A stretch of DNA of 64,000 nucleotides from a virus (Duplodnaviria > Heunggongvirae > Uroviricota > Caudoviricetes > Crassvirales), in the IMG/VR virus record IMGVR_UViG_3300008267_000092, positions 24,022-88,021 of that record; one strand, written 5' to 3'. The position numbers and the translations under genes were made by a program. Under the pieces are notes generated by a model that saw nothing but the letters and a program-made list of their open reading frames with translations, was not told where the DNA came from and made no database searches. The first letter of the stretch is position 1. Each line of letters opens with the position of its first letter. Of this stretch, positions 6,178-60,320 are shown piece after piece.

Positions 6178-6681
6178 ATGGAAAATAATAAGAAAAAATT
6201 ATTAAACGATAAAGTTATTAAAACTTTAAATTACAGAATACAACAAGAAGAATATTCTTCAAGAATTTACGAACAATTATCATTATGGTTAAACAATAAA
6301 GGATATTTAAATTTTGCAGAGTTGTTTAAGAAATATTCAGAAGAAGAATTAGTACATGCTAAATTTTCTAAAGATTTTCTATTAGATTATGGTATTACAC
6401 CTTGTCTTGAAGCGTTACCTTCTCCTGAAATGGAAATAGAGTCATTATTAGACGTTTTAGAAGCAGCTTATGAACATGAGCTATTAGTTACTCAACAATG
6501 TGAAGAACTTGCCTCTATGGCTTTAAAAGAAGGTAATCACGTGTTATATCAATTAGCATTAAAGTACTGTGCTGAACAACAAGAAGAGATTGGTAAAGTT
6601 ATTACAAATTTAGATATTTATAAACTAAGTACTGACATGTTGGTTATTGACCATTATGTAGGTGAAAAACTGTTAGGATAA
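6178..6681 (+). CDS. ftn: ferritin (FtnA-like non-heme ferritin, ferroxidase-centre residues conserved)
   Basis: 167 aa; collinear similarity to E. coli FtnA from memory (LNYRIQQEEYSS / SEEELVHAKF / YEHELLVTQQCEELA / AEQQEE), with the ferroxidase-centre positions (E, ExxH, E, QxxE) occupied. Confidence 0.8.
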   Translation: MENNKKKLLNDKVIKTLNYRIQQEEYSSRIYEQLSLWLNNKGYLNFAELFKKYSEEELVHAKFSKDFLLDYGITPCLEALPSPEMEIESLLDVLEAAYEHELLVTQQCEELASMALKEGNHVLYQLALKYCAEQQEEIGKVITNLDIYKLSTDMLVIDHYVGEKLLG

Positions 6682-9600: not shown

Positions 9601-10804
9601 ATTACTAAAAGCAGAGGCTAAATATACTTCAGATATGCCTAATATTTTACGTGATTTAAGTAGCCCTGTAAAAACTTCATTTACAAATCAATTATTAGAA
9701 ATGTATGATGTTTTTGGTGGGTTTGACCCTGCAACTCAAGAGTTTATTAGAAATAGTGTTGCTAAAAAATTAGCATCTAGACAAACATTAAATGGTTTGA
9801 ATGAGATGGGTGAACATGCTATGAACTCTGTAGTAACAATGAGTGTATTAGATGGTCTTAAAGTAATGAATGCTGAACATAAATATATTGACAAAGATGG
9901 TAAAATTGTAGATTCTGAAAATGAAGCAGCATCGTTACTTGATATGCTTATATTTAATGACAAAGGTAAGTTGGTAATGAGTGATAGTGTTAAATTTACT
10001 AAACAAAATTTAACTGTCGATTATCATAAGGGTGGTAAAGTTCACGTTAACTTATTAATCAAAAATAAAATATTTGATGTATTTGGTGTATATGATAACA
10101 ACTTTAAAAATGAATTTTCAAAAACTGTATTAGGTAAACTTACGATGATGTTTAAAAACTTTTTCCTAAGTGCTGCACAATATAGATTTACAGGTATTCA
10201 AACATCTTTAAAAAGTAAAGAAGATTTAACTGATGATGATTTAAATTATAACACAGCTAAAAAAGAATATACTGAAGGTACTTATGTCACGTTAATTCGA
10301 TATTTTAAAGAAGCTGTCATACCTGCGTTAAAAAATCTTGAATTAATGTATGTTAAAGAGGTATATAGTGGACTATCTGATCATGAAAAAGCAAACCTTA
10401 AAAAAGTAACGGTTGAAATAATGTTAACGTCTATTATTATACCTGCAATAGGTGCATTGATTGCATCGGCTGCAGGACCAGATGATGATGAAACATGGTT
10501 TATGGTTTATCAATTACGAAGACTTGAATCAGAATTATCTCAATTTAGAAACCCAATTGAGGCAGGTAAGATTATTACAAATCCTATTGCTGCAGTAAGA
10601 TTACTTCAACATGGTTTAAGTTTTGCGTATGAAGTTGCAACACCTTTGGATTTTGCACCAGATAAAGGTGATCATTTCTTTTCATATTTAAATGAAGATT
10701 CTAAACATCAAAACATTTTACTTAAAAAAGGTAAAAAAATAGTTCCAATTTGGTCAAAAATGGATCGTGATTATAAACAACTTTATTCACTTATTAATAA
10801 GTAA
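6683..10804 (+). CDS. giant protein (1373 aa) with HExxH zincin-like metallopeptidase motif and C-terminal hydrophobic segment; probable virion/ejection protein
   Basis: long ORF; VVGFLHEIVHSLT (HEIVH) at nt ~7250-7270; predicted TM helix IMLTSIIIPAIGALIASAAG near C-terminus; coiled-coil-rich central part. Confidence 0.5.
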   Translation: MVCPNKRLKAWKDLVKVVGEDKAYLLWDTHEGNVPQQYYNEQSINESATLVAGSNISEENLFQSTVDFNDLIGNTNESIFTDGFENKSIDSDLGKITDILFNGNVGNLRVEHILNNIIENVPDITEHTAEIINRSKKLLTRANVKVELVKDSEMVSNNTVMQYEANTNTIQISLDRINQFDSKTVVVGFLHEIVHSLTVQALAKDPSKRTFSEQELVDVVENFLKKYKDSKLTEEYGFKDRFEFVAEFYANPEFRDAVKAESDIWWKKIVDAIRRLFDVAKNPEYTKLFDTIIKYVENDNVDLEHIENLDIIFRKEAEYKKPEFVTFQDKLDRLSGKAIDNIAQARARTAASKKAKSKKDQKTHLKNIDDLIEEMDKLSEINKLQVIAQYTNTLAKTIYQIDNGMKRLYTKTKDFRKEDLLPLLQSYEEYLLAYDLTNEINELLAASRRELKVLSEEDQKSLDEIRKTLSYAISRRDELVKEFVDLKREQAVKVFAKPEYNTQVETDFRNRLYKEYAQLNIQGESRDQYVSRMLATRDKDEYEKALVASAEKMINNPSLDISSFKAKFSDHLNISSKLIQIITNITSAVREKITSQYKDYDLMLNDLFKDLVKEKGNKKPSEAFKNIYEQDKDGNYFFKGVYSIKFRDIYLEEYIPLKQALSEITEKLKLQGLTKKEYLTNDEYKQADANAKAWMKKHTLKDHNDPTGKAWYPRPIYKNAEVTGMDKQVLKEAIALAKLGHKEFKGKRSLIRKTGNVQFYKFPAITKSNFERAVEMDAKGIVKDIKADLTEIRPDDIGYGEPVSKTGESLKSIKVHFRGELSPDQQSLDVLSILRKEYLNVISYKEKSKEEASILLVADISKNKEYLQISKKTGLPLLNAFNKNEPIETMSGEFTNEYLKIKGIIERTVYDTFHEHGGNFSGVDINKITSYVNGMTATIAMSFDIASGTANVLNGFTQLFIESVGGDVFSTKSLLKAEAKYTSDMPNILRDLSSPVKTSFTNQLLEMYDVFGGFDPATQEFIRNSVAKKLASRQTLNGLNEMGEHAMNSVVTMSVLDGLKVMNAEHKYIDKDGKIVDSENEAASLLDMLIFNDKGKLVMSDSVKFTKQNLTVDYHKGGKVHVNLLIKNKIFDVFGVYDNNFKNEFSKTVLGKLTMMFKNFFLSAAQYRFTGIQTSLKSKEDLTDDDLNYNTAKKEYTEGTYVTLIRYFKEAVIPALKNLELMYVKEVYSGLSDHEKANLKKVTVEIMLTSIIIPAIGALIASAAGPDDDETWFMVYQLRRLESELSQFRNPIEAGKIITNPIAAVRLLQHGLSFAYEVATPLDFAPDKGDHFFSYLNEDSKHQNILLKKGKKIVPIWSKMDRDYKQLYSLINK

Positions 10805-20528: not shown

Positions 20529-21998
20529 TTATATAAAAGGGTTAGATAAATAATCCGAAATGAGATCTTCTACACTTGTTGTAGTTGAAATTTCAGATAT
20601 TTTACTATACCAGTCAAAATAACTATGATTACCATAGTCTTCCTCATCAAATAATACACCTTTTAATTTTGAAAAATGGCAAGTATTCTCTTGTCTAGTT
20701 AAAATATAGTTGACCAGTCTATCATATATTGAGTATCTGTAAGATATATTATTTCTATTACAGTAATCTTTAATAATATACATTAAGCGATTTTGATTCT
20801 CACTACAATTTAATGCATTACCTTCTAGAATATTTTTAGTGTTTATTTTAGCATAATCTACAAGTATTGTACTTAATAATAAAAACATTGAAATTTTAGA
20901 CATATCATATGTTGGAGTATGAATTCTAAATTCAATTGTAGTTTTATTACCAAAAATTAAAGGTATTAAATTATGTATGAAATAACGATGTTTTATATTC
21001 CACTTTTGATTACCACTTGGATCATTTGGGTGATGAGTAACATTATTTAAATCGTTATTAAAATCATAAAATGAAACACCTCCTGACAAATAACTAAATA
21101 AAACATTAAAGTTATAATCAATATTTTTAGAAGTTATTACAGGATCCATTTTTGAAATTAAAGAATATGTAGGATAAGGTTTACTATAATTCTTATTTTT
21201 AATATTAAAATTATATTTTTTATATAACGGAAATAATTCAAAAATGTCGTCTTGTATAAAAGTTGTTAATTTAAAAAATGCTAAAATAAATTCTTTTGTT
21301 CTAGGTACATTTCCAATATGCATATGAAGAGCACAGCTATTATCAAATTCAGTTCTTTCTTTTAGAGCTTTTGTTGTATCAAATAGTGTCTGCACCCCTT
21401 TTACACCTTGTAATGGAATTGTTACATATTCAATACCTGAAATACTACCGTCACGTAAAGGAATTAATCCTAATTTATCTGTAATTCTTTGAGGTATGTA
21501 ACCTTTAATTGTTTCAAATTCAAGTCCAAAAGTGTAATCTTTTAAAGCTTTTCCAACCTCATTAGAGCCATGTAATACTTCAAATTCATATTTTGAGTTA
21601 TATCTCTGAATGTGTGAAATGTGAAAATAAAGACCCGATGATAATTCTTCACGATATTTTTTATTTTGAATTAAAATGTTTTCATTCATCGCAGGTATCA
21701 CGATTCCGTGTTTATTTTCAAAATACATAACGTGATTTGATCTCTGGAACCAACCTATTTTGTCATTTTCAATTAAACCTGAGAGTAAATTTGCATTTTT
21801 AAGAGTGTATTTCTTAAATGTATTACAATATACAATATTACCTTTTTCAACACGGTAATACTTATCATTAATTTTATAACAATCCCCTGAATTTTCAATT
21901 TCAGGATCTCCGATTTTATAATATTTACCTTCAAAAATTCTTGTTTTAGAAATAGGTAGAGACTCACCACTTACAGTTGTTACTATTTTTTCAATCAT
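20529..21998 (-). CDS. GCS2-like carboxylate-amine (COOH-NH2) ligase / amidoligase paralog with ~145 aa N-terminal extension
   Basis: FGLEFET (GvEeEf-like N motif) and ALHMHIGN (GxHxH motif), same motif pair as 23889-24686. Confidence 0.45.
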   Translation of the reverse strand: MIEKIVTTVSGESLPISKTRIFEGKYYKIGDPEIENSGDCYKINDKYYRVEKGNIVYCNTFKKYTLKNANLLSGLIENDKIGWFQRSNHVMYFENKHGIVIPAMNENILIQNKKYREELSSGLYFHISHIQRYNSKYEFEVLHGSNEVGKALKDYTFGLEFETIKGYIPQRITDKLGLIPLRDGSISGIEYVTIPLQGVKGVQTLFDTTKALKERTEFDNSCALHMHIGNVPRTKEFILAFFKLTTFIQDDIFELFPLYKKYNFNIKNKNYSKPYPTYSLISKMDPVITSKNIDYNFNVLFSYLSGGVSFYDFNNDLNNVTHHPNDPSGNQKWNIKHRYFIHNLIPLIFGNKTTIEFRIHTPTYDMSKISMFLLLSTILVDYAKINTKNILEGNALNCSENQNRLMYIIKDYCNRNNISYRYSIYDRLVNYILTRQENTCHFSKLKGVLFDEEDYGNHSYFDWYSKISEISTTTSVEDLISDYLSNPFI

Positions 21999-22005
21999 TG
22001 TTTAA

Positions 22006-23877
22006 TTATATTTTTAAAAAGTTATTCATTTGGTGTAAAGAATCATCAAGAAAATCAATTATATGTCCTGCTACATAATTATCTTTATATTTTTCTAATT
22101 TACTTTTAAGTTTTTGAAAATCTGAAAAACTTTCAGCTAAGTCTTCATCTGCAAGATTTAAAACTAATTCAGAAATTGATTCTTCTTCATCAATTAAAGT
22201 ATTTAATATGTCTTCATCAGAATCAGGTTCTACTACAACTTTCATAAATGAAGGATTATCCCAAGCATCTAATTTTGCTAATTCAGCATCTATAACTTTA
22301 TCAATTTCAGAAACTTCTTCAACAGGAAGTTCTTTTGAAAGATATGTATTTACAGAAGAACTTACAAGATTACCTAAACTTATAACATATTTCTTTTCGG
22401 AACCTAATGGACAAATTTGACCACTAAAAGGTTTTCCATTAAATAATATATTTTGATGTTTCACATCACAAACATCTTTATCTAAATCAATTACAGGGTG
22501 TGTTGATAAGCTTGATAAAGTGTGAAAATCTAAATACTTTCTATTTTTACCTAAATATCTAGTATATGCAATATTATAATCAATCGAAGTTCTTAAATTA
22601 ACACCTTCTACAAAATAAAATAAACTTGGATTTAGGCAGTTTTCACTTTTAAATGGTATAAATTGATTTTTAAGATTTGGATTAACTGCTTCAAACGCAC
22701 CATTAATAAATACTTTATCAATATGAAAATAAAAACGTTCCGTTGCCTCTTTAATATTAGATTCTAAATAATGAAAACCATAACCAGGTATCCATGTATA
22801 AATACCTGTAATAGGTAAACCTTTTTTTAAATATCTTAATTTATTAAAATATACCTTGTTATCATAACTACCAAGTGATTGTAAAGTGGTTTCGTTATAA
22901 ATATTAGAAGTTACAACCTTACTTTCAATAACAGAGTTAGAAGGACTTATAGTTTTTGTAGATTCATTACTTTTGTAACCATAATCGTAGTCCCAATCTT
23001 CATATCCATAATTATGTCCTGAATAGTTTCTTCCTGAATATTGTTTATTATAATTTGTAGAATAATCTTCTTTTTGATACGCTTTTTTACGACTAACTTT
23101 AATTTTTTTAGCGTTTTTAAAATCTCCATCTGTAATAACATATACTGTATTACTGTCTATCGCTTTAATTTTAGTATCATCATCACTAATTGTTTTCAAT
23201 GCTGATTCTAATGAAGACACGTACATACTATTATCATTTTCAAGATATACAAATAATGGACGTTCTTCTACCATTTTTGAATCATTATCTGAAGATAAAC
23301 TTTTTGAAGCACCTTTCCATAAATAACCTACATTGGGTGTATCTGTGTCTGTCCAAAATAAAGCAGCACCTCCAATATATTCACTCAAAACTTTAAAATT
23401 ATTTGAACGATATAATATTTCCAATAATAATTCAGAATCAATTTTAGTTCTAACTGAATCTACAATATTATTTTGATAAGTTGTTAATTTATAATCTGCA
23501 GTTAATTCAACATTGTATTTTTTAGCTAATTCTGTATGATTTGAAAGTGTTCCATTATGACAACCTATAAATTTAAAACCTGAATTAACATTATTTACAT
23601 CAAACCCAAAAGGATGGGCATTATAAGAATTTACCGCACCTACACTTGATTGGCGAGTGTGTCCAATTACAATAGGGTATTCAAAAGGTTTAATATTATT
23701 TTCAACTATAAAATCATAATATAATTTATTTTTATCTAAACCTATATAAATTTCTCCATCATAAGATACACCACAAGAACTTTTACCTCGTTCTACATTA
23801 TATATACCTAATTTGTCAAATTTATCTTTATTAAAATCTTTAGGATCTTTTCCTAAATAACCAAATATTCCACACAT
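22006..23877 (-). CDS. class-II glutamine amidotransferase (Ntn hydrolase) domain protein with Tyr/Asn-rich linker and acidic C-terminal tail
   Basis: N-terminal MCGIFGY (Cys2 nucleophile hallmark of GATase-II/Ntn); no PP-loop SGGxDS so not AsnB/QueC; C-terminal DSDEDILNTLIDEEES. Confidence 0.65.
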   Translation of the reverse strand: MCGIFGYLGKDPKDFNKDKFDKLGIYNVERGKSSCGVSYDGEIYIGLDKNKLYYDFIVENNIKPFEYPIVIGHTRQSSVGAVNSYNAHPFGFDVNNVNSGFKFIGCHNGTLSNHTELAKKYNVELTADYKLTTYQNNIVDSVRTKIDSELLLEILYRSNNFKVLSEYIGGAALFWTDTDTPNVGYLWKGASKSLSSDNDSKMVEERPLFVYLENDNSMYVSSLESALKTISDDDTKIKAIDSNTVYVITDGDFKNAKKIKVSRKKAYQKEDYSTNYNKQYSGRNYSGHNYGYEDWDYDYGYKSNESTKTISPSNSVIESKVVTSNIYNETTLQSLGSYDNKVYFNKLRYLKKGLPITGIYTWIPGYGFHYLESNIKEATERFYFHIDKVFINGAFEAVNPNLKNQFIPFKSENCLNPSLFYFVEGVNLRTSIDYNIAYTRYLGKNRKYLDFHTLSSLSTHPVIDLDKDVCDVKHQNILFNGKPFSGQICPLGSEKKYVISLGNLVSSSVNTYLSKELPVEEVSEIDKVIDAELAKLDAWDNPSFMKVVVEPDSDEDILNTLIDEEESISELVLNLADEDLAESFSDFQKLKSKLEKYKDNYVAGHIIDFLDDSLHQMNNFLKI

Positions 23878-23888
23878 AATTTATTTTT

Positions 23889-24686
23889 TTAATTTGTTAA
23901 AATGTAACTATCTTTTTCAATTTGTCTAAGTAGTAGTTTTGCTAGTTTTCTATCATTGTTATCAATTGCTTCCACTACTTGAGCTGAATATTTATCAATA
24001 TAGTGGGTATGCTTACCGTCTAATACGTGTTCTACAGCTTTTATTGTTTGATCAAATACCCATTTAATCAATGTGTTGTCGTGTATCCAAAAATTAGATA
24101 ATTGACGACATTCTAATCCAAAAAGTTTAGGTCTAAAAGAACCAGCTTTACCATATAGTTCTCTTCTTCGTTCATCGTTATCCAATAATAATGAAGGTAA
24201 TGTTACAAAAATATCAAACATTTTTACAATATTGACAGTTTTTTCAAATTCAGGATCTGGATAACCTATATGAATATGTCCGCCCACACATCTCAAATTA
24301 GTATTTGTATCAGGTTTAGGGTTTATCATTTCCGTATATACGTTGTAATCAGGTTCACAACCAAATAATTGTGCTTGTTCAGATTGCAAATGTATAGGGT
24401 TTATTTCATCTGAAGCTTTTGTAGATAGTTCAAATCCGTGTGAATTTGCAATGACTTCAAGATATTCTTTAACATAATTAATGTTTTCAATATATTCATC
24501 TGCAGTACTACAAGGAGGAATGTTAAATTCAAATGCAATATTATCGGTTTGAATGAAATGACCCTTATCTGTAATTGGATAAGGATCATCTTTAGTTCCA
24601 GGAATTAATCCTACTGCAGATACAATTTCAGTATCATTTTCAATAAATACTTCAGGGTCACTACCTAATTTAATGTCGTATTTCAT
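23889..24686 (-). CDS. GCS2-like carboxylate-amine ligase (amidoligase)
   Basis: KLGSDPEVFIE N-terminal motif and VGGHIHIGYP (GxHxH) typical of glutamate-cysteine-ligase family 2 / phage amidoligases. Confidence 0.5.
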   Translation of the reverse strand: MKYDIKLGSDPEVFIENDTEIVSAVGLIPGTKDDPYPITDKGHFIQTDNIAFEFNIPPCSTADEYIENINYVKEYLEVIANSHGFELSTKASDEINPIHLQSEQAQLFGCEPDYNVYTEMINPKPDTNTNLRCVGGHIHIGYPDPEFEKTVNIVKMFDIFVTLPSLLLDNDERRRELYGKAGSFRPKLFGLECRQLSNFWIHDNTLIKWVFDQTIKAVEHVLDGKHTHYIDKYSAQVVEAIDNNDRKLAKLLLRQIEKDSYILTN

Positions 24687-41730: not shown

Positions 41731-41788
41731 CGTCTCCAAACATCATAGGATATACCCTGAGTTTGGAGACGGTGGGATTCGAACCCAC
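41731..41788 (-). pseudogene. tRNA 3'-half remnant (T-arm + 3' acceptor strand) fused to an 11-bp hairpin in the 5' leader of the HNH gene
   Basis: reverse complement GTGGGTTCGAATCCCAC-CGTCTCCA...; CGTCTCCAAAC pairs with downstream GTTTGGAGACG; no D/anticodon arm upstream. Confidence 0.5.
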
Positions 41789-42207
41789 GTCGATCAATGC
41801 GTTTGTTATATAATTTTATACAGCTTTTTGTAGTATTTAATCTTTAATGTCCCTTAAACACTACTAAATGTGGACAGCTATGGCAATGTTATACTCTAGC
41901 CAGTGTTGAGTTTGATTTGGGATTAGCGCACACGCGAATTCTAATTTACCAAATCATTTTAAACTATGCTGCCATTAATACTTCTTCTTTAGAAGAGTTA
42001 ATCAATGAAAAAACTTTAGCCATATTGGCTTTTGCTTGATTTTTGCCGTTTAAAATATTCACCTTAGTTTACAGTTATCTCTCTGGCTGAATTATATAAT
42101 TACTGACACAACCTCAAAGCCAGTCGTCCCCTTATTAATTGTTTAAAGTACAATCATAAACTTATTATTAGAAGGTGACACTTAATGTAATCACCTTCTA
42201 TAATTTA

Positions 42208-48737: not shown

Positions 48738-48990
48738 TGATATGGCACCTTTCCCTGTATATGATACAGAATATGTTGAGGAGGTGAAAACTAAAATAAA
48801 AGAAATGGAAGAAAAAAGTAATGAATACGATGAGTTACCTGTAGTAGCTTGTAGACACTGTAAAAGTTTACATGTTGTATCTGATGAGTTAGACAATTCA
48901 ATATGCATGCGTTGTGGTTCTGTAAATGAATTACAGGAGTTTGAAAATATTTATAAATATAAAGAATTTAAAGATGGCGAGAATTCCTAA
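48670..48990 (+). CDS. zinc-ribbon protein
   Basis: CRHCKS...CMRCGS. Confidence 0.4.
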   Translation: MTMKRNMTLKYLKQLLKHLQYYNDMAPFPVYDTEYVEEVKTKIKEMEEKSNEYDELPVVACRHCKSLHVVSDELDNSICMRCGSVNELQEFENIYKYKEFKDGENS

Positions 48991-49639
48991 TACCGAGAAG
49001 AGAACATTAAAGACTGAGCCAAAATTAATGGTTGATCTTAATTTTGAACAGAAAGAATTTGTAGAATTGTTTTATCAGTACGATGTTAATTTCTTATTAG
49101 GAGATTTTGGATCAGGTAAGTCATTAGCTGCTGTACATACAGCATTAAAAGCTTTTAGAAAAAAGCAATTTAATAATATTTGGATTACTAGACCTATGAT
49201 TAAAAATAATCTAGGAGCTTTACCTGGGGAGATTGAAGATAAATTAAGTCCTTACATATTCCCAATTATTCAAAATTTAGAAGTTTGTCAAGGTAAGGAA
49301 ATGACTGAAAAGATGCAGAAAGAAGGTTTAATTAAGATTATGCCAATAGAGGTTGCCAAAGGTGTAACATTTATGAAATCTGTAGTTATTGTTGATGAAT
49401 TTCAAGATATGGATTACGAAGATTTTAGAACAATTTTAACTAGATTGGGTAATGGAAGTAAAATGATATTTTGTGGATCCACCCAACAAGTAGCAAGACA
49501 AATTGGTAAAAACAGTTGTATTGAAAGAGTTGAAACTTTAAAAAATTCTAATCTTGTAGGTTTTAAAACACTAACTTCAAATCATAGAAATCCAATATTA
49601 ACTGAAATAATTAAATATTTAGAAACTAAAAATGAATAA
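48926..49639 (+). CDS. phoH: PhoH-like P-loop ATPase
   Basis: LLGDFGSGKS (Walker A), VVIVDEFQDMD (Walker B), FCGSTQQV. Confidence 0.55.
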   Translation: MNYRSLKIFINIKNLKMARIPNTEKRTLKTEPKLMVDLNFEQKEFVELFYQYDVNFLLGDFGSGKSLAAVHTALKAFRKKQFNNIWITRPMIKNNLGALPGEIEDKLSPYIFPIIQNLEVCQGKEMTEKMQKEGLIKIMPIEVAKGVTFMKSVVIVDEFQDMDYEDFRTILTRLGNGSKMIFCGSTQQVARQIGKNSCIERVETLKNSNLVGFKTLTSNHRNPILTEIIKYLETKNE

Positions 49640-50027: not shown

Positions 50028-50295
50028 ATCAGACAATGATAAAATTAAAAAACTTATACATCGTATAGGGTTAAAGTATAATCTTAGAGATGAAGATGTA
50101 AATAAAATAATAACTTCACCATACATATATGTTAGACAGATTATCACAAATATGGAAATTGAAGAGAATATAACAGAAGACGAATTTAACAAATTAAAAA
50201 CAAATTTTATATTTCCAAATATTGGAAAATTATATATTAAATACGGTACTGTATTGAGGTACCAAAATCAAAAAAAACATGATAGAACAAAGTAA
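50020..50295 (+). CDS. hypothetical protein
   Basis: 91 aa ORF. Confidence 0.4.
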   Translation: MTKSDNDKIKKLIHRIGLKYNLRDEDVNKIITSPYIYVRQIITNMEIEENITEDEFNKLKTNFIFPNIGKLYIKYGTVLRYQNQKKHDRTK

Positions 50296-50644
50296 TTTTA
50301 CGCAGGAAGAAGTATTAAAAATCGCTAAAGATTTTAACATTGAACCAATGTTCAATAAAGTGATTATCACATTAAACAAATTAGAAGAAGATGGTAATCT
50401 TGTATTATCTGAAAACATGTTGTCTGAAGAACAATATATTGTATCTAAGGGTGATACGGTTCGAGGTTTAGAAATTGGTCAAAAGGTAATTATTGATATT
50501 GAAAGAATGATGATTACTGTAAAATCAGAATCTGTAAATGCTTATGAGGATGTAAAACAAATTAAAATTGAACCTATATTGTATAATCATACAATGTTTG
50601 CAATCATTGAAGATAGATTAATTAAAGCTAAATATAAAAACTAA
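50279..50644 (+). CDS. hypothetical protein
   Basis: 121 aa ORF. Confidence 0.4.
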   Translation: MIEQSNFTQEEVLKIAKDFNIEPMFNKVIITLNKLEEDGNLVLSENMLSEEQYIVSKGDTVRGLEIGQKVIIDIERMMITVKSESVNAYEDVKQIKIEPILYNHTMFAIIEDRLIKAKYKN

Positions 50645-50645
50645 T

Positions 50646-50921
50646 ATGGAATTATTTTTACACATTATTGTAGGTCTAGCAATTGTAGGTCTTATTTATG
50701 AATATATACGATTACTTAAAGGTTATGAAAATCTTGCAGAAGTATTTGTAGATTCTGAAGCGGAATATTTTTATAACGAAAAAGAACTTCAGAAAACAAT
50801 TGAAGAATTAAAACTTGAAATTGAATTACTTAAAACAGAGTCTGAAAAACAAACTCTTGAAGTAACACCTAAACCTGTAAGAAAGAAACCCGTTTCTAAA
50901 AAAATACCAAACGTAGAATAA
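50646..50921 (+). CDS. small membrane/coiled-coil protein
   Basis: N-terminal TM helix IIVGLAIVGLIY, coiled coil. Confidence 0.4.
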   Translation: MELFLHIIVGLAIVGLIYEYIRLLKGYENLAEVFVDSEAEYFYNEKELQKTIEELKLEIELLKTESEKQTLEVTPKPVRKKPVSKKIPNVE

Positions 50922-51181
50922 TGAAATTATTTGAAATGCGTGACTTCAATCTCCAAGTGATTCCAGAAGCTTGGGGATTGTTGCCGTTTAAGGCAATACT
51001 TAAACGAGATAAAAACCGTAATAAAGAAACTGCATTTAAGGAAATGTTATTTATATATTTTTATTGTGATATACGATCAGATTATGTTTATATAACAGAC
51101 AATGTAGTTAGAACTACAGAAATTAAAAAAGATATTGGACTTTCTGAAGACTGGAAAATAGATGATGTAATCAATCGTTAA
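50921..51181 (+). CDS. hypothetical protein
   Basis: 86 aa ORF. Confidence 0.4.
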   Translation: MKLFEMRDFNLQVIPEAWGLLPFKAILKRDKNRNKETAFKEMLFIYFYCDIRSDYVYITDNVVRTTEIKKDIGLSEDWKIDDVINR

Positions 51182-51430
51182 AAGCTGCGGATGATATATC
51201 TAAATATCTTGAAAAAACAGATGCATTATTAGATGAGAGAACGATTAATGGTGGTACTGTTACAACATTGGCTACAATTACAGCATCGCTTAAATCTGTC
51301 CCAGTAATTATGCGAGATCTTAAAGCAGCATATAAAGAAGTTTTAAGTGAACAAAAAGAAATGGAAGGTAGAACTAAAGGAAGTAAAACGATGGGACTTT
51401 TTGAGGATGGTCTTGGTGAAATAGGATAAT

Positions 51431-52897
51431 ATGGAAGAAATATATTTTAAAGAGGAAGCTAGAAATAAACTTTTAAGTGGTATAAATAAATTACACGATG
51501 CTGTAGCATCTACAATGGGACCAAATGGTAAGACGGTTATTATAAGTGATGTGTATGGTAAACCTAAAGTAACTAAAGATGGTGTATCTGTTGCAAGAGC
51601 GATTTCATTTAAAGATCCTGTTGAAAATATGGGTGCAGAATTAATCAAAGAAGTAGCAGAACTTACTGTAGATATCGCGGGAGATGGTACTACTACAGCT
51701 ACAGTTTTAGCTACTGCTTTTATTAACAATTTAATAACCTTTGAATCTAAAGACATTAATAAAGCCTTTGATGAAATAATACCTAAAGTATTAGAACAAT
51801 TAAAAATAAATTCTAGAACATTGGAACGTGATAATATTAAACACGTTGCTACAATTTCTGCAAACAACGATATAACTATAGGTGAGGTTATTCAAAACGC
51901 ATATAACCATTCAGATATTATTAAAATTGAAGAATCAACATCTAATAGTGATATATTGGAATTAGTTGAGGGTATGCAGTTAGATGTATCTTATTTATCA
52001 AAAGCATTTGTAAATATTGATCGTAAAGCAGAATGTGAATTGACTAATCCACATGTATTAATTATAGATGGTAAACTTGAGAACTTAAAAGTTTTTGAAC
52101 AATTATTAAACACTGTTGCTGCAAACAACGAATCATTATTAATTATAACAGAACATGTTTCAGAACAAGTATTAAGAATGCTTGAAACAAATGCATTAAG
52201 CGGTAATATTAAACTATGTGTAATTAAATCACCTGGATTTGGACAACATAGAAAAGATTTACTGAAGGATATTGCAAAGTTTACACAATCTACAATTATA
52301 ACAGATTTAAGCAAACCTTATACGTTAAGTATTGCAGGTAAACTGCAGTCTGTAAGAGTTACTAAAAATAATTCTATCTTGGTTAAGGATTCATCAATAG
52401 ATGTTACAGAAGCAATTGCAGATTTAAATGAATTGTCTAAATCTATAGATCTATCTGAACACGATAAGGATTTGATTATCCAACGAAGAGATAGACTTAC
52501 AGGTAAGATATCAATCATTAAAGTTGGAGGTGTTTCTGAGATTGAGATGAAAGAACGTAAAGATAGATATGATGATGCGGTATTAGCTGTAGCCTGTGCA
52601 TTAGAAGAAGGAATTGTACAAGGTGCGGGTTTAGCATTATATCACAGTATTCAAAATGTTTATGATGTAAAATATGATGAAAAAACACCATATCATTTTA
52701 TAATGAAAAGTCTACTTTCACCATATGATAACATTTGTAAAAATGGGACATGTATTCCTGTAATGAGTAATATGTTTGATCAAAACATTATAGATCCACT
52801 TAAAGTTACAAGATGTGCATTAGAGAATGCAGTATCTGTAGCTAAAACAATATTATCAACAGACACAATTATTTTAAATGAGCGTCAATGGAGTTAA
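51431..52897 (+). CDS. groEL: GroEL/Cpn60-family chaperonin (488 aa, lacks C-terminal GGM tail)
   Basis: ARNKLLSGINKLHDAVASTMGPNGKTV...VTKDGVSVARAI...GDGTTTATVLA collinear with GroEL N-terminus/ATP-binding loop. Confidence 0.85.
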   Translation: MEEIYFKEEARNKLLSGINKLHDAVASTMGPNGKTVIISDVYGKPKVTKDGVSVARAISFKDPVENMGAELIKEVAELTVDIAGDGTTTATVLATAFINNLITFESKDINKAFDEIIPKVLEQLKINSRTLERDNIKHVATISANNDITIGEVIQNAYNHSDIIKIEESTSNSDILELVEGMQLDVSYLSKAFVNIDRKAECELTNPHVLIIDGKLENLKVFEQLLNTVAANNESLLIITEHVSEQVLRMLETNALSGNIKLCVIKSPGFGQHRKDLLKDIAKFTQSTIITDLSKPYTLSIAGKLQSVRVTKNNSILVKDSSIDVTEAIADLNELSKSIDLSEHDKDLIIQRRDRLTGKISIIKVGGVSEIEMKERKDRYDDAVLAVACALEEGIVQGAGLALYHSIQNVYDVKYDEKTPYHFIMKSLLSPYDNICKNGTCIPVMSNMFDQNIIDPLKVTRCALENAVSVAKTILSTDTIILNERQWS

Positions 52898-55149
52898 ACA
52901 ATTATCAAACACCTATAGATGATAAACTGAAAGCGTCATTACATAAAGAAATATATGGTGACATTTTAGAATATGTATCTAGTGTTAAGTTTATACAAAG
53001 ACTTGTTGCACCTGAAAGCATTAGAGGGTTTGCTAAAGATAGGGAAAAAGAAGTTGAGTTTTATAATGATGGTAGAATTAAAATTGATTTAACAAACCCT
53101 CACATTCTTGAAGATATGGACTTTTTTAGAGAAAAGGCTTTATTTTTTGAAAAGAATGGTAGATATACAAATATACCTCCTAATAGTAATCCTAAGTCTG
53201 AGTATGCTGAGTTTTGGAAAGAAGAACTTCGTAAATGGAAACATGGTGTTGTGAGACCTAGTGATGGTGAATGGATTCCAGGAACATTATATTTTTATTG
53301 GAACTACAGTCCAATATGGTTAGTTGAAAAGGTAGGTAAGGAATCTGCAAACAAGAAGACTAAGGGAGAACGTCTTCGTAAGTTCCCTAAACCATGGTTA
53401 GGTGATTACTTATATTTTCATTATACACAACAAGCTAAGGATAACGGTAAACATGGTAAAGTATTAAAGACTAGGGGAATTGGTTTCAGTTTTAAAAATG
53501 CTGCAGAATCACCAAGAAATATGTATGTATATCCTGGTTCAGGTAATCCTAATTTTCACTTAGCTTCAGATAAAACCTTTTTATCAGGTGATAAAGGTAT
53601 ATGGGGTAAAATCTTAGATGTTTTAGACTGGGTTGCAGAACACACACCTTTACCAAAGATGAGAATTGTCGATGGTAAAAAAGCAATGGAACTTCAACTT
53701 GGTTACCCTGATGAGTATGGTAACCGTAAAGGATTGTTATCTTCTGTATTTGGAATATCCTTAAAAGATAATCCTGATAAAGCAAGGGGTATTCGTGGAC
53801 CACTTATTCATTATGAGGAAGACGGATTATTTCCTGACTTAGAAAAAGCATGGAACGTAAATAGAAAAGCGGTAGAGGATGGTGATGTTGCATTTGGATT
53901 TATGTTGGCAGGAGGTACAGGTGGTACACAAGGTGCATCATTTGCAGGATCTGAAAAGTTATTTTATAAACCTGATGCATATAACATTTATGGTTTACCA
54001 AATGTATATGATAAAAACAATAATGGTGAAACAGAATGTGGTTTCTTTTGGGGAGCATATTTAAATCGAAATAACTGTTACGATGAAACAACAGGAGAAC
54101 CTGATGTAATCAAGGCTTTAGTGGAGATACTTTCTGATAGATTTGTTGTTAAATATGGATCATCAGATTCATCAGCAATTACACAAAAGAAAGCTGAGGA
54201 ACCTATTACACCACAAGAGGCAATTATGCGTACTGAAGGTACTGTATTTCCTGTTGCAGATATTAAAGAATATCTTGAAAGTGTGGCTCCTAAAAAAGAA
54301 TCATTTTTAGCAGAACATTATGTTGGAGAATTAGTTCTTAATAACCTAGGTGATGTAGAATGGAAACCTAATGGAGATATACATCCATTGAGAGCATACG
54401 ATTCATCTGATGGTAATAAAACTGGATGTTTAGAGATATTTGAGATGCCTCGAAAAAACGCTAATGGTGATATCCCTAGAGGTAGATATATTTTTGGTAT
54501 TGACCCTATTGATGCCGATACAGGTACATCATTATTTAGTATAATTGGTTTAGATACATTTACAGATAGAATTGTGTGTGAATATTCAGGTAGACCTAGA
54601 TTAGCTAATGAGGCTTACGAAATCGCGTTACGTACACTTAAATTTTATAATGGTGAAGCAAATTATGAAAGTAACTTAAAAGGTTTATTTAGTTACTTTG
54701 ATAGTAAAAACTGTTTACACTTTTTATCAGATGTACCTCAAGTATTACGTGATATGGATATGGTTAAAGCAACTAACCTATATGGTAATAAAGCTAAAGG
54801 TACACACGCAAATAAAGAAATTAATAAGTGGGGTAGATTGTTACAATCACAATGGATGCAAACTAAAGCCCACGGTGATGATGAAGATAATAGACTTAAT
54901 CTTCATCGTATTCGAAGTATTCCTTATTTAGAAGAATGTATTGCCTGGAATAGTGATGGTAACTTTGACCGTGTATCTGCAATGGGTATGTTGATGATTT
55001 TACGTGAAGATAGATTTAAACGTACTAATTCTTTAAAAGGAAACGTAGATAAAACTGTTAAAAAATTATCAAATGATTCGTTCTTTAATAAAAATTATCA
55101 AACGTCAAACACAATAGCTATTACTAATACTTTGAATTTCAATAAATAA
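52888..55149 (+). CDS. terminase large subunit (putative)
   Basis: 753 aa; C-terminal RNase-H-like nuclease motif FGIDPIDADTGTSLFSIIGLD; deviant Walker A-like KTRGIGFS; position immediately upstream of portal. Confidence 0.5.
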   Translation: MELNNYQTPIDDKLKASLHKEIYGDILEYVSSVKFIQRLVAPESIRGFAKDREKEVEFYNDGRIKIDLTNPHILEDMDFFREKALFFEKNGRYTNIPPNSNPKSEYAEFWKEELRKWKHGVVRPSDGEWIPGTLYFYWNYSPIWLVEKVGKESANKKTKGERLRKFPKPWLGDYLYFHYTQQAKDNGKHGKVLKTRGIGFSFKNAAESPRNMYVYPGSGNPNFHLASDKTFLSGDKGIWGKILDVLDWVAEHTPLPKMRIVDGKKAMELQLGYPDEYGNRKGLLSSVFGISLKDNPDKARGIRGPLIHYEEDGLFPDLEKAWNVNRKAVEDGDVAFGFMLAGGTGGTQGASFAGSEKLFYKPDAYNIYGLPNVYDKNNNGETECGFFWGAYLNRNNCYDETTGEPDVIKALVEILSDRFVVKYGSSDSSAITQKKAEEPITPQEAIMRTEGTVFPVADIKEYLESVAPKKESFLAEHYVGELVLNNLGDVEWKPNGDIHPLRAYDSSDGNKTGCLEIFEMPRKNANGDIPRGRYIFGIDPIDADTGTSLFSIIGLDTFTDRIVCEYSGRPRLANEAYEIALRTLKFYNGEANYESNLKGLFSYFDSKNCLHFLSDVPQVLRDMDMVKATNLYGNKAKGTHANKEINKWGRLLQSQWMQTKAHGDDEDNRLNLHRIRSIPYLEECIAWNSDGNFDRVSAMGMLMILREDRFKRTNSLKGNVDKTVKKLSNDSFFNKNYQTSNTIAITNTLNFNK

Positions 55150-55214: not shown

Positions 55215-57608
55215 ATGCCAAGAATAAATAACTTAACATTACCTCTGCAGAGATTAGCTTTTAAGAAAAAAGATAAACAGTGGAGGACGGATTGTATTGA
55301 TTATGCAGATCGACATTCCTTCTATAACAATGAAAGAGTTCGTAAAAGTTTACAAAATAAGATTATAAATCTTAATCTTTATAATGGTATTGTAGATATT
55401 AGAGACTTAACTAATGTTGTAAACCCACATCAGGTTGATGCAAGTTTTGTACCTGATAATATCCCACACCACCCAATACTCGTCCCTAAAATTGATCTTT
55501 TAGTGGGTGAAGAAATAAAACGAAGATTTGATTATTCAATCATTGTTACAAATCCTGATGCTATTACCAAAAAAGAAGAAGATAAGAAGGAGTTTTTAAA
55601 ACAGAAACTTGTTGAATTTCTTCAGAGTCATTATTCAGATGAGGAATTGAAAGTTAAAATGGAGGAGTTGGAAAAACACATGAAATATAATTGGCAAGAC
55701 CTTCGTGAAAAAACAGCTAATCAAATATTAAAACATTACAGTCAAGAACAACGTTTTGACCTCACATTTAATTTAGGATTTAAAGATGCCTTAATCTTCG
55801 CAGAAGAAATTTATCAATGTGATATTATACACGATGAACCTGTATTGCTTAAACTTAACCCTTTAAAAGTACACTCTGTAAGATCTGGTAATTCAGATAG
55901 AATTGAAGATTCTTCTATAATTATTATACAAGATCACTGGAGTCCAAATAAAATTGTAGATGTATATCACGATGAGTTAAAACCTGAAGATATTGATTAC
56001 ATTTTAACATATAGTACAAATTCATCTAAAGGATCTTATTCAGATGATCAAAATAACCACGTACTACTTCGCGACGCATTGAATACAGGGGTTGAGGGTA
56101 TGTATGATACCATTTTTAATTTAGCAGAACTTAACGGGCACTTTTTTGGGTCTAACTACACCGATGACACAGGAAACATTAGAGTACTTAAAGTATTTTG
56201 GAAATCAATTAAACAGATTAAAAAAATTAAGTATTACGATGAATATGGTGAAGAACAATATAAGATAGCGTCTGAAGAATACATTCCTAATAAGGATATG
56301 GGTGAAGAAGTTACTACCATGTGGGTTAATGAATGGTGGGAAGGTGTTAAGGTAGGTAAAGATATTTATTTAAATATTAGACCTCGAAAAGTTCAATATA
56401 ATAAAATACATAATCCTTCACTCTGTCATCCAGGAATTGTAGGTCAAATTTATAATACAAGTCAATCTAAAGCTGTTTCATTAGTTGATAGATGTAAAAA
56501 CTATCAATACATGTATGATGTAATTTGGGATAGACTGAATAAAGCTATTGCTACAAACTACGGTAAGATATTTGAATTAGACCTTGCTAAAGTTCCTGAA
56601 AACTGGGAAGTTGAAAAATGGATGCACTTTGCTGTAGTAAATAAGATTGCAGTTATTGATTCATTTAAAGAGGGTCAACAAGGTGCAGCTACAGGTAAAC
56701 TTGCAGGTTCTATGAATACTCAAGGTGGACGTGTGATGGATATGGAAACAGGTTCTTATATTCAACAACACATTCAATTATTGGAGTTTATTAAAATGGA
56801 AATGGGTGAAATTGCAGGAGTATCTGCTCAACGTCAAGGACAAGTTTCAAATCGAGAAACTGTAGGTGGTGTTGAACGATCTGTAAATCAATCTAGTCAT
56901 ATTACAGAATGGTGGTTTATGTTGCATGAACAGTGTAAAATTCGTGTACTTGAAACATTTATAGAAACTGCTAAAGTTGCATTAAAAGGGAATAATAAAA
57001 AAGTACAATTTCTTTTAGATGATCAATCAATACAAGTTTTAAATTTAGAAGATAATGATTTTTCAGAACAAGACTACGGAATTGTAATTACAACTTCTGG
57101 TAAGACAATGGAGCTTGAACAGATGATTAAACAAAATGCTCAAGCATTTTTACAAAATGGAGGTTCTATGTCTACAATCATGGATATATATTTTAGTTCA
57201 TCGTTAATGGATATGCGTAGAAAACTTGAAGATGCTGAAGAGCAAATGCATCAACGACAATCTGAACAATCTCAAGAAGCTAATAAAATTCAACAAGAAC
57301 ACAATCAGGCATCTATTGATTTAGAAAATAGAAAACTTGAACTTGAAGATTTGAAAAATCAACGAGATAATCAGACTAGATATGATATTGCACTTTTATC
57401 ACAAGAAACTAATGCTGGTGATTTAAATGGTGATGGGGTTGAAGACCCGATGGAGCGTGAAAAATTTAATCTGAGTGTAGATCAAAAGCGTCAAGATTAC
57501 ATTTTAAAAATGAAACAACTTGAGAATGATATGAGTAAACATAAGGATAACGTAGCATTAACTAAGGAAGCACACGCAATTTCAAGAATAAAAAAGTCAA
57601 CAAAATAG
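55215..57608 (+). CDS. portal protein (putative)
   Basis: 797 aa, follows terminase; long C-terminal coiled-coil/charged region. Confidence 0.45.
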   Translation: MPRINNLTLPLQRLAFKKKDKQWRTDCIDYADRHSFYNNERVRKSLQNKIINLNLYNGIVDIRDLTNVVNPHQVDASFVPDNIPHHPILVPKIDLLVGEEIKRRFDYSIIVTNPDAITKKEEDKKEFLKQKLVEFLQSHYSDEELKVKMEELEKHMKYNWQDLREKTANQILKHYSQEQRFDLTFNLGFKDALIFAEEIYQCDIIHDEPVLLKLNPLKVHSVRSGNSDRIEDSSIIIIQDHWSPNKIVDVYHDELKPEDIDYILTYSTNSSKGSYSDDQNNHVLLRDALNTGVEGMYDTIFNLAELNGHFFGSNYTDDTGNIRVLKVFWKSIKQIKKIKYYDEYGEEQYKIASEEYIPNKDMGEEVTTMWVNEWWEGVKVGKDIYLNIRPRKVQYNKIHNPSLCHPGIVGQIYNTSQSKAVSLVDRCKNYQYMYDVIWDRLNKAIATNYGKIFELDLAKVPENWEVEKWMHFAVVNKIAVIDSFKEGQQGAATGKLAGSMNTQGGRVMDMETGSYIQQHIQLLEFIKMEMGEIAGVSAQRQGQVSNRETVGGVERSVNQSSHITEWWFMLHEQCKIRVLETFIETAKVALKGNNKKVQFLLDDQSIQVLNLEDNDFSEQDYGIVITTSGKTMELEQMIKQNAQAFLQNGGSMSTIMDIYFSSSLMDMRRKLEDAEEQMHQRQSEQSQEANKIQQEHNQASIDLENRKLELEDLKNQRDNQTRYDIALLSQETNAGDLNGDGVEDPMEREKFNLSVDQKRQDYILKMKQLENDMSKHKDNVALTKEAHAISRIKKSTK

Positions 57609-58814: not shown

Positions 58815-60320
58815 ATGTCTTTAGGTAAATTTGTAATGACCAAGGGTAAAGCTTGGTCAGGATTGACTCTAAAAAATCACATCGGTGCTATTTTTGGAAG
58901 TCAGCCACAATTAATCTCTCCACTAACAACTGTGTTGTTACAAAATTCAGGAATGAAAAATTTAGATACTACGTTATCATTATTTCCTGAAAAAGTTTTA
59001 AATACTGCTGACGATTTCGTTTGGAAAGTTGTAGGTAGTGATGAGAGAAATATTCCACTTGTTGAAGCAAGATTTCAAGGTGCTGTAGTTAACGGTGCTA
59101 GTGTAGGTGTGGGTGTTGCTAGAACAAAATTTCAATTAGTATTTGCTGAGAAGTGGTTTACTAAAATGCACGTAATTGCAGGACCTCGTCCAGATGTATA
59201 TCAAATCAGAATTCTTGAAGATGCGTATGAAGAAGGTACTAACTACATTTATGATTGTGAAGTTTGGGGTGGTCAAGAATCATTAGCTGGTATTCCTGGA
59301 GATGAACTTTTACCAGGTAACAGATTCTCTATCGAGGGTGCTCCTGTTGAGGATGAACTTTCTATCAAAGGTGCAGGTATTCAATTTACTTCTCCATACT
59401 TAATTAGAAACTCAGTTTCTACAATGCGTGTTGAGCATAAAGTATCTGGAGCAATGATTGATTGTAAAGTAGAGCCTGTATATTTTGCAGGTATTGAAAC
59501 AAGAGATCCTAACACTGGAAAAGTTCACAAGTCAAGCACTTGGATGCAGGAAGTTTACTGGCAGTTTGAAAAAGCATTCTCTCGTATTAAATCACGTACA
59601 ATTATGTTTGGTAAAACAAACCGTGATGAAAATGGTCGTTTCTTAAACAAAGGTAATGCTAACATTGAGATTAAAGCTGGTTCAGGTATTCGTGAGCAAA
59701 TGGAAGTATCTAATACAATTACTTACAACCGATTCTCTATGCGTCTTTTAGAAGATGTATTGTCTGAATTATCTGAAGGTAAATTAGATTGGACTGAAAG
59801 AAAGTTCATGTTGAGAACAGGAGAAAGAGGAGCTGCTCAATTTAATAGAGCTGCAACTGCTGCTGCTTCAGGATGGAAAGCTATCTTTGATAACACTAAC
59901 CAAAACGCAGTTAAACAAGTTTCATCTAAATTTAGTGAGAACGCATTTAAAGCAGGATTCCAATTTACAGAATGGATAGCACCTAATAACATTCACATTA
60001 TGTTAGAGGTAGATCCAATGTATGATGATAAAGTTCGTAATAAAATTTTACATCCTGATGGAGGAGTTGCTGAATCTTACAGATATGATATTCTTTATAT
60101 CGGTTCTATGGAAGAACCTAATATCCAAAAAGTAAAAGTACGTGGTGATGATGAATTACGTGGTTATATGGCAGGTATTAGAGATCCATTCTCTGGACGT
60201 AGAGGTGGTGTTATGCAATTGATGGAAGACTCTGCTACAATGACTGCAATGTGTGGTACTGGAGCAATGGTTAAAGATCCATCAAGAACAGCTACTTTAA
60301 AACCAGCGTTGTTAGATTAA
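58815..60320 (+). CDS. major capsid protein (putative)
   Basis: 501 aa, elevated GC/codon bias, strong terminator downstream, canonical position after portal/scaffold. Confidence 0.4.
   Translation: MSLGKFVMTKGKAWSGLTLKNHIGAIFGSQPQLISPLTTVLLQNSGMKNLDTTLSLFPEKVLNTADDFVWKVVGSDERNIPLVEARFQGAVVNGASVGVGVARTKFQLVFAEKWFTKMHVIAGPRPDVYQIRILEDAYEEGTNYIYDCEVWGGQESLAGIPGDELLPGNRFSIEGAPVEDELSIKGAGIQFTSPYLIRNSVSTMRVEHKVSGAMIDCKVEPVYFAGIETRDPNTGKVHKSSTWMQEVYWQFEKAFSRIKSRTIMFGKTNRDENGRFLNKGNANIEIKAGSGIREQMEVSNTITYNRFSMRLLEDVLSELSEGKLDWTERKFMLRTGERGAAQFNRAATAAASGWKAIFDNTNQNAVKQVSSKFSENAFKAGFQFTEWIAPNNIHIMLEVDPMYDDKVRNKILHPDGGVAESYRYDILYIGSMEEPNIQKVKVRGDDELRGYMAGIRDPFSGRRGGVMQLMEDSATMTAMCGTGAMVKDPSRTATLKPALLD

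Follow-up and report, generated by a model that had tools for sequence, protein, structure and literature searches.

A short GroEL gene beside the terminase gene of a marine crAss-like phage and its probable, highly diverged Cpn10-type partner

The window analysed here, a stretch of 64 kb from the ~94 kb genome of a crAss-like phage (IMG/VR record IMGVR_UViG_3300008267_000092, positions 24,022 to 88,021), carries a gene for a short homologue of the chaperonin GroEL and, upstream of it, a small gene whose product is probably a highly diverged co-chaperonin of the Cpn10/GroES type. All coordinates given below are those of the window. The source is a marine phage and, by gene content, crAss-like (Crassvirales), because the stop codon of the GroEL gene overlaps the start of the gene for the large terminase subunit (TerL), and a portal gene and a Crassvirus capsid gene then follow; the nearest isolate by DNA is Cellulophaga phage phi14:2 (Crassvirales, Steigviridae). 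The genes that concern us lie on one strand, as follows (aa, amino acids; ORF, open reading frame; E, expect value).

50279..50644, + strand: diverged Cpn10/GroES-fold co-chaperonin candidate, 121 aa, recognized by profile-profile and fold comparison
50646..50921, + strand: small 91-aa ORF lying between Cpn10-like gene and GroEL, with no assigned function (95 aa in the closest relatives)
50921..51429, + strand: phrog_16390 gene directly 5′ of GroEL, with no assigned function, split in the window
51431..52897, + strand: short GroEL of 488 aa (large subunit of a group I chaperonin), an ATG-to-stop ORF
52888..55149, + strand: TerL, large terminase subunit (PHROG 6681, E 3.2e-105)
55215..57608, + strand: portal protein (PHROG 6547, E 8.8e-165)
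58815..60320, + strand: Crassvirus major capsid protein, 501 aa (Pfam PF23898, E 7.5e-173)

By sequence and predicted fold, the product of 51431..52897 is a GroEL homologue. It matches Pfam PF00118 (Cpn60_TCP1) at E 4.9e-46 and 157.9 bits (cut-off 34.3) and, over its full length, PHROG 5725, ‘chaperonin groEL’, at E 1.5e-122. Its best match among PDB sequences in a phmmer search is a reconstructed ancestral GroEL from the FCB (Fibrobacteres-Chlorobi-Bacteroidetes) group (9rwr, E 1.5e-98), with many bacterial GroELs (E. coli at ~1e-84) and mitochondrial Hsp60 among the further matches, while gp146 of the jumbo phage EL (6tmt) is reached at E 3.8e-34 only. The AlphaFold2 (AF2) model, a monomer built on 44 family members, has a predicted local distance difference test (pLDDT) value of 89.3 and a predicted template modelling (pTM) score of 0.80, and is predicted to comprise equatorial, intermediate and apical domains. 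The top 50 Foldseek matches of this model in the PDB are all GroEL or Hsp60, the best template modelling (TM) score being 0.91 (4ki8 and 8bl2, representing GroEL-ADP and GroEL-ATP states), and identity to solved GroELs in the structural alignments is 34–38%. In the model, the apical domain has no lid-like insertion. A first-pass annotation, made from the letters alone, had described a GroEL-like chaperonin with Cpn60 homology, placed just 5′ of the terminase and portal genes, ~60 aa shorter than GroEL and devoid of the GGM tail, and all of this is borne out: the protein has 488 aa, compared with 548 aa in E. coli, its C-terminus reads ...ILNERQWS, and the ATG of TerL lies 10 nucleotides (nt) ahead of the GroEL stop, so that the two genes overlap by 10 nt before the portal and capsid genes follow. 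Its remark that phage chaperonins are rare is overstated, as a GroEL homologue occurs in 288 of 50,697 phage records and the short family alone counts more than 120 clusters.

The same annotation held that no GroES-like gene was evident nearby, which proves wrong, since a diverged GroES-fold gene (50279..50644) lies ~790 nt upstream of GroEL on the same strand. It is not a gene that routine searches recover: no GroES emerges when 47 small ORFs of the window are scanned against Pfam and PHROGs or when E. coli GroES serves as a phmmer query. Among 46 viral loci with GroEL relatives gathered for comparison, 13 of the 16 distant viral GroELs (30–37% identity, 517–549 aa) have a GroES-like ORF within ~1 kb, directly upstream in 10 of them. 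A hidden Markov model (HMM) made from eleven viral GroES of these distant loci and E. coli GroES gives weak matches (E 0.1–5) to a recurrent ~120-aa ORF of the short-GroEL loci, the window copy of which is 50279..50644. Clear homologues of this ORF are present in 26 loci, including the more distant L030 and phi14:2 (g096), and every short-family locus with at least ~1.3 kb of upstream sequence carries one, of 116–128 aa and 0.5–1.9 kb 5′ of GroEL; in these same loci no canonical GroES is found.

Profile comparisons connect this small-protein family with co-chaperonins. Aligned by hhalign to the 11 GroES, it gives E 2.9e-5, the 89 aligned columns extending across the entire domain. When the 121-aa protein is compared with phage genomes by tblastn, it matches crAss001 Gp15 and its relatives, which are annotated as ‘putative 10kDa chaperonin’, and the hhalign comparison of the family with Gp15 yields 96.8% at E 2.5e-10; Gp15 itself matches Pfam Cpn10 below threshold (E 0.0036, 17.7 bits versus 21.1). 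PF00166 (Cpn10) matches none of 22 aligned members of the family, even when E values as high as 10 are admitted. The family profile, searched in 1.84 billion representative proteins, finds at least 169 clusters, and nine of its 43 distant matches are Pfam Cpn10 proteins (best E 1.7e-11), the only other repeated family being the ‘GroES-like’ domain of alcohol dehydrogenase.

In its model, a monomer folded with 14 homologues from the protein database, the 121-aa protein has the GroES β-barrel fold. Foldseek against viral models places uncharacterized proteins of phages phi14:2 and cr108_1 at the top, with dozens of annotated viral GroES, and the top structural matches are true co-chaperonins over nearly the full length, not dehydrogenases. 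A loop comparable to the A-G-G-I-V-L-T of GroES reads D-G-x-L-V-L-S at residues 38–44, L41 being invariant and L43 nearly invariant among close homologues; the pLDDT falls to 64–73 over residues 31–50, where almost no secondary structure is modelled. The loop is four residues shorter than that of GroES, the roof hairpin is missing, and an N-terminal helix and a β-hairpin insertion are added. On profile and model evidence together, 50279..50644 is a candidate gene for, and probably encodes, a highly diverged Cpn10/GroES-type co-chaperonin.

How far the short GroEL retains the equipment of its cellular relatives was read from an alignment with E. coli GroEL (548 aa, 100% identical in sequence to PDB 4pkn) that comprises the ORF product and 120 homologues and in which the following elements are located.

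51680..51697, + strand: GDGTTT nucleotide-binding motif, window residues 84–89, aligned with E. coli G86–T91 and including D87
52097..52189, + strand: apical helices H and I region, window residues 223–253, by alignment
52574..52576, + strand: codon of D382, aligned with catalytic D398 of GroEL and invariant in the family
52742..52789, + strand: loop, window residues 438–453, replacing GroEL helix Q and the 476–484 hairpin, by alignment and DSSP of the model

The catalytic residues of the ATP site are kept in the window GroEL (TMGP 30–33, D52, GDGTTT with D87, ISAN 150–153, D398 and D495) and are present in every complete sequence of the short family. Around the nucleotide-binding motif, A83, D85, G86 and T87 never vary among 44 family members, at least 90% of which also share G84, T88 and T89; G415 is Ala in the window GroEL and Gly in most relatives. 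The 60 residues that the protein lacks relative to E. coli GroEL are unevenly distributed. Helix D, which spans residues 89–109 in GroEL (PMC2741606), is five residues shorter, with K105 removed and 15 residues left in the model. A deletion of ~21 residues between E. coli positions 458 and 484 takes away E461, S463 and V464 as well as N479 and A480, the last two of which are listed among the functionally important residues of GroEL (PMC2741606). The C-terminal ~20 residues, including the GGM repeats, are gone, and a conserved ...LNERQW ending with an invariant Trp stands in their place; in the family this end is L-N-E-x-Q-W (residues 482–487, nt 52874..52891), with W487 and L482 invariant, and it might contribute to the cavity floor or to a subunit contact. 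Minor deletions lie at E. coli positions 166–168 and ~304–308. The three main reductions are shared by the 26 family members compared with E. coli GroEL: the helix D region has 19 residues versus 24, without exception, the 452–490 region a median of 18 versus 39, and the tail 9 versus 29.

The first two of these losses fall on the contacts between rings. In GroEL, A109, E434, R452-E461, S463 and V464 connect one ring with the other, and the combination R452E/E461A/S463A/V464A is a single-ring mutant (PMC2741606; PMC12696368). In the short family, residue 105 is deleted, A109 is replaced by Ile or Lys, R452 is variable, and 461, 463 and 464 are deleted in nearly all members. With both of the classical sites of inter-ring contact lost or altered, the phage GroEL may assemble as a single ring.

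The apical groove, where substrate and lid are bound, is partly recharged. Five of its nine classical residues are kept (Y199, S201, F204, L237 and L259) and four are changed (Y203A, L234E, V263E and V264T); in window numbering, L234 corresponds to E223, L237 to L226, L259 to L248, V263 to E252 and V264 to T253. The Glu at E. coli position 263 is conserved in at least 90% of the short family. R197, which in GroEL pairs with E386 in an inter-subunit salt bridge (PMC2741606), is Val in the window protein.

These changes speak for remodelling rather than decay, because they are fixed across a family under purifying selection: the ratio of non-synonymous to synonymous substitution rates (dN/dS) of the window GroEL against its nearest relatives is 0.14–0.15, and that of the Cpn10-like gene is 0.12–0.16. 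The protein database holds more than 120 clusters (at 90% identity) of the short family, 59–100% identical to the window GroEL and all of 480–504 aa; many members sit on contigs of 92–105 kb, a crAss-like size, and the family is abundant in marine metagenomes. It is known solely from metagenomes, since no sequenced isolate has a GroEL more than 38% identical to that of the window. A recent horizontal transfer was considered and rejected, as the G+C content of the gene (~0.30) fits that of its neighbours and the family is deeply diversified; a decaying pseudogene was likewise rejected on the dN/dS of ~0.14 and the invariant catalytic residues. Judged from its sequence record, the short GroEL is an old and maintained gene, neither a recent capture nor a relic.

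The state of the groove follows the kind of small protein encoded nearby. The eight distant viral GroELs with the strongest GroES matches have 541–549 aa and an entirely hydrophobic groove (YSYFLLLVV or YSYMLLLIV at the nine positions), and they keep R197 (Lys in one), E386 and a full-length equatorial segment. Those with weaker GroES-like ORFs have 517–530 aa and less uniform grooves. The GroELs paired with the diverged small protein have 482–507 aa (three sequences of this set appear truncated or over-extended in their ORF call), carry the deletions, have Val or Thr at 197 and follow the groove pattern [YF]-S-x-F-[E/K/R/Q]-[L/I/F]-[L/M/I/V]-E-[S/T]. In one clade whose GroEL has Arg at 234 (loci L012, L013, L016 and L023), the loop of the small protein reads G-L-[D/E/N]-L, with one residue deleted, in place of the G-x-L-V-L of other clades. 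A compensating change across the proposed interface is suggested, though by a single clade.

Among Steigviridae, the block upstream of TerL includes the Cpn10-like gene as a conserved element, as seen in crAss001 (locus L048, 7411..7821), cr108_1 (L049, 10872..11252) and phi14:2 (L001, 7767..8156). It bears a chaperonin label only in crAss001-type genomes, which have no GroEL, and is called ‘hypothetical’ in the two genomes that have one. Of the crAss-like relatives in culture, phi14:2 is the one with both genes. As crAss001-type gut phages hold the small subunit only, and cr108_1 and phi14:2 both genes, the distribution suggests as the simplest history that the lid came first, working with host GroEL in the manner of gp31, and that a phage-owned ring was added later in some lineages.

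We consider it probable, on balance, that the phage encodes a two-component group I chaperonin, made of the short GroEL and the diverged Cpn10, within a block that runs on to the terminase, portal and capsid genes; the diverged GroES-type partner ~0.8 kb upstream is what makes a two-part folding machine probable rather than a lone chaperonin. In such a machine, a heptameric ring of phage GroEL would receive a lid of seven small-protein copies and work in a cycle driven by ATP; it would possibly be a single-ring assembly, given that the usual inter-ring contacts are gone, and the altered groove and loop would possibly insulate the pair from host GroEL and GroES. It would act on late phage proteins, the likeliest client being the major capsid protein of 501 aa. 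By analogy, a role in capsid or virion folding is plausible because of the gene position and the precedents of T4 and lambda; in T4, the head protein gp23 needs gp31, a precedent that links phage use of GroEL/GroES to head assembly (cited in PMC5649160). At 1373 aa and at least 2056 aa, the giant proteins of the window exceed the size of the GroEL cage; being too large for encapsulation, they are unlikely to be cage clients.

Several observations weigh against this reading. Two of the three groove residues that are key for GroES binding are replaced (L234E and V264T), and V263 is Glu as well (PMC12696368). The hhalign probability of the small-protein family against GroES is 73.6% only, and direct HMM searches with the family in Pfam, PHROGs and PDB sequences found no match. 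The statement that this phage has no canonical GroES extends over the ~69 of ~94 kb inspected (the window and ~5 kb of flank). In E. coli GroEL, the L234E change presumably abolishes the binding of both GroES and substrate. The deleted equatorial hairpin, in a region variable within the family, contained N479 and A480, which we take to be the adenine contacts of GroEL; with this hairpin missing, ATP binding by the phage protein is no more than likely, from its catalytic residues. The first-pass annotation had let its chaperonin call stand or fall with the apical and equatorial residues needed for ATPase activity or substrate binding, and here the outcome is divided: the catalytic ATP-site residues are all in place, which speaks for a chaperonin, while the loss of the hairpin and the change of four of nine apical residues speak against. 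Finally, the small-protein family also occurs in crAss001-type phages without GroEL, so that the small protein can work with host GroEL and its presence is not proof of partnership.

A sharper version of the two-component reading, which we regard as no more than tentative, is that of an obligate single-ring, host-orthogonal pair akin to SR1 that arose by evolution in marine crAss-like phages, with a roofless Cpn10 and tuned to the 501-aa crass capsid protein. The loss of the end of helix D and of the E461–V464 segment would remove the coupling between rings, and orthogonality to host GroEL/GroES would come from the recharged groove together with the changed loop of the partner. If true, it would represent a natural, minimal and host-insulated SR1-like system.

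Rather unlikely, in our judgement, is a stand-alone chaperonin, in which the short GroEL would be a lid-free, ATP-dependent holdase or foldase comparable to the jumbo-phage chaperonins EL gp146, OBP gp246 and AR9 gp228, and the 121-aa protein would serve host GroEL as T4 gp31 does. A partly charged groove (L234E, V263E, V264T, Y203A) with Val at 197 and the presence of the small protein where no phage GroEL exists are what such a division of labour would lead one to expect; phage chaperonins able to dispense with a co-chaperonin have been described (PMC7185714; PMC9598537), and helix D is one turn shorter in EL gp146 too (PMC7185714). The first-pass annotation pointed in this direction by noting that some phage chaperonins act without a co-chaperonin, but the idea that this one does so finds no support here, as a conserved Cpn10/GroES-fold gene lies 0.8 kb upstream and is linked to the GroEL family in related phages. 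Independence is further disfavoured by the E values, which place the window GroEL far nearer to cellular GroEL (1e-98) than to EL gp146 (3.8e-34). The groove, moreover, still holds Y199, S201, F204, L237 and L259 and varies together with the small-protein loop between clades, canonical GroES is missing exactly where the diverged one occurs, and the model has no lid-like apical insertion.

The pair might instead belong to a general takeover of host proteostasis and, along with a transfer-messenger RNA (tmRNA), PhoH and a ferritin/Dps-like gene, provide bulk folding or stress tolerance, the capsid protein not being a dedicated client. This we hold to be improbable: full-length tmRNA, ferritin-like protein and PhoH are indeed encoded in the same window, but GroEL overlaps TerL and shares a terminator-free block with the portal and capsid genes, its position beside TerL is kept across the family, and the established precedent of T4 gp23 with gp31 (cited in PMC5649160) ties phage GroEL/GroES use to head assembly. 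Still less probable is the use of canonical host GroES by the phage GroEL, with some unrelated role for the 121-aa protein, since, although host co-chaperonin use was proposed by Marine et al. for viral GroEL clades without GroES (PMC5649160) and the GroES-like fold is found outside chaperonins, for instance in alcohol dehydrogenase domains, two of three key GroES-contact residues are replaced, the small protein finds its best structural matches in true co-chaperonins, over nearly the whole length, rather than in dehydrogenases, its profile reaches Pfam Cpn10 proteins, and its loop keeps a G-x-hydrophobic tripeptide that is modelled as flexible.

The block that holds the pair has further features. 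The placement of GroEL beside TerL is maintained across the short-GroEL family, and no terminator-like site was found on the + strand from 46.7 to 58 kb (through the portal gene). A sigma-70 promoter scan, which is probably inapplicable to a Bacteroidota-type host, did not exceed the level of shuffles, with 81 sites versus 86 expected. Most related loci have the phrog_16390 gene as one ORF of 187–189 aa, and L015 has it as one of 198 aa; in the window, a 61-nt deletion relative to the closest relatives (L002 and L003) leaves an ORF of 86 aa (50921..51181) and an out-of-frame C-terminal remainder (to 51429), a split that may be either a real disruption or an assembly error. The + strand block with the Cpn10-like gene, GroEL and TerL also includes a PhoH-like ATPase gene at 48926..49639 (PF02562, E 2.9e-43).

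Elsewhere in the window, a full-length tmRNA gene (41763..42131, − strand; Rfam RF00023, 55.3 bits versus a gathering score of 47, E 5.7e-19, model positions 1–374) is found in the region of the replication module, with the tag peptide GKNQAKANMAKVFSLINSSKEEVLMAA* according to ARAGORN; a phage tmRNA beside a phage chaperonin pair hints at a wider proteostasis toolkit. The replication module also contains adjoining amidoligase-like (phrog_2443, E 1.2e-34) and glutamine amidotransferase-like (phrog_4736, E 5e-13) genes at 20529..23877 on the − strand, which may have a role in nucleotide or DNA modification. Near the window start, a ferritin/Dps-like gene (6178..6681, + strand; PF00210, E 3.3e-20) is flanked by two giant ORFs; a DpsA-like gene is present in crAss001 as well. 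The first giant ORF (5..6175, + strand), cut by the window start and thus of at least 2056 aa, has a C-terminal Dda-like helicase domain (phrog_325, E 8.5e-77), and the second (6683..10804, + strand), of 1373 aa, has no PHROG match.

The presence of GroEL in crAss-like phages is already known and the bare observation is not new, as the gene is annotated in phi14:2 (2013) and cr108_1, a PHROG family exists, and marine viral GroELs have previously been surveyed (PMC5649160). Literature searches on crAss-like phage chaperonins returned no paper discussing a GroEL/cryptic Cpn10 system. Apparently undescribed are the family-specific loss of the inter-ring segments and the tail, the fixed recharging of the lid-binding groove, the cryptic Cpn10 that accompanies the short GroELs, and its link to crAss001 Gp15. 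By pairing a natural loss of ring-ring contacts with a recharged lid-binding groove, the family offers a test case for the working of a single-ring, host-orthogonal chaperonin, for the co-evolution of chaperonin and co-chaperonin, and for the need of a crass-type capsid for a dedicated cage.

Compared with the bacterial system (E. coli P0A6F5; ancestral FCB 9rwr), the phage pair shares the three-domain fold, the catalytic ATP-site residues and a separate small gene of GroES fold. It differs in a large subunit shorter by 60 aa, with five residues less in helix D, the ~21-residue inter-ring segment and hairpin deleted from the equatorial domain and LNERQW in place of the GGM tail, in the groove (L234E, V263E, V264T and Y203A, with Val for R197), and, relative to the bacterial groES-groEL operon, in a partner gene that is non-adjacent and too diverged for Pfam. 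Among crAss-like phages, phi14:2 (g105, 490 aa) and cr108_1 (gp_22570, 494 aa) each have a protein annotated as ‘chaperonin groEL’ that is short, lacks the GGM tail and is encoded upstream of TerL, and each has an unannotated homologue of the 121-aa protein (g096/S0A2F3 and A0A7M1RXD4, respectively). Their GroELs are nevertheless only 37–38% identical to that of the window; in the phi14:2 protein the helix D region is of full length and the groove (YSYFSLIVQ) is more hydrophobic, and the small gene of that phage lies between GroEL and TerL, whereas that of the window lies upstream of GroEL. Gp15 of crAss001 is homologous to the 121-aa protein and occupies the same position in the block upstream of TerL, but crAss001 has no GroEL, so that Gp15 presumably uses that of the host, and it has a canonical loop (TTGGIIDS), no N-terminal helix and a longer C-terminus.

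T4 gp31 also lacks the roof hairpin, yet T4 depends on host GroEL while the window phage carries its own, and, set against gp31 and RB49 CocO, the loop of the window protein is shorter than that of GroES, not longer, and the hairpin insertion and N-terminal helix are extra. The jumbo-phage chaperonins EL gp146, OBP gp246 and AR9 gp228 are likewise phage relatives of GroEL with altered ring-ring contacts and, in EL, a shortened helix D, and single rings have been observed for them (PMC7185714); they are highly diverged from GroEL and act without a co-chaperonin, whereas the window protein, from a ~94 kb crAss-like genome rather than a jumbo phage, resembles GroEL in sequence and is accompanied by a candidate co-chaperonin gene. 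The marine GroES>GroEL operons of virioplankton (Marine et al. 2017) share the marine setting, but loci of that type (L031–L047) mostly encode GroELs of 517–549 aa and have, within ~1 kb and as a rule directly upstream, a GroES-like ORF, and those with the strongest GroES matches keep an intact hydrophobic groove, unlike the window. The window family fits the description of the ‘GroEL-only’ clade of the same authors, who assumed that such viral clades use no GroES or that of the host (PMC5649160), and phage GroELs without a recognizable GroES have so far been read as lid-independent or as users of a host lid. In the lineage of the window, a lid is probably present and is too diverged for routine annotation, with no significant PHROG match; because a lid can be unrecognizable by sequence, some of the published ‘GroEL-only’ viral clades may need to be read again.

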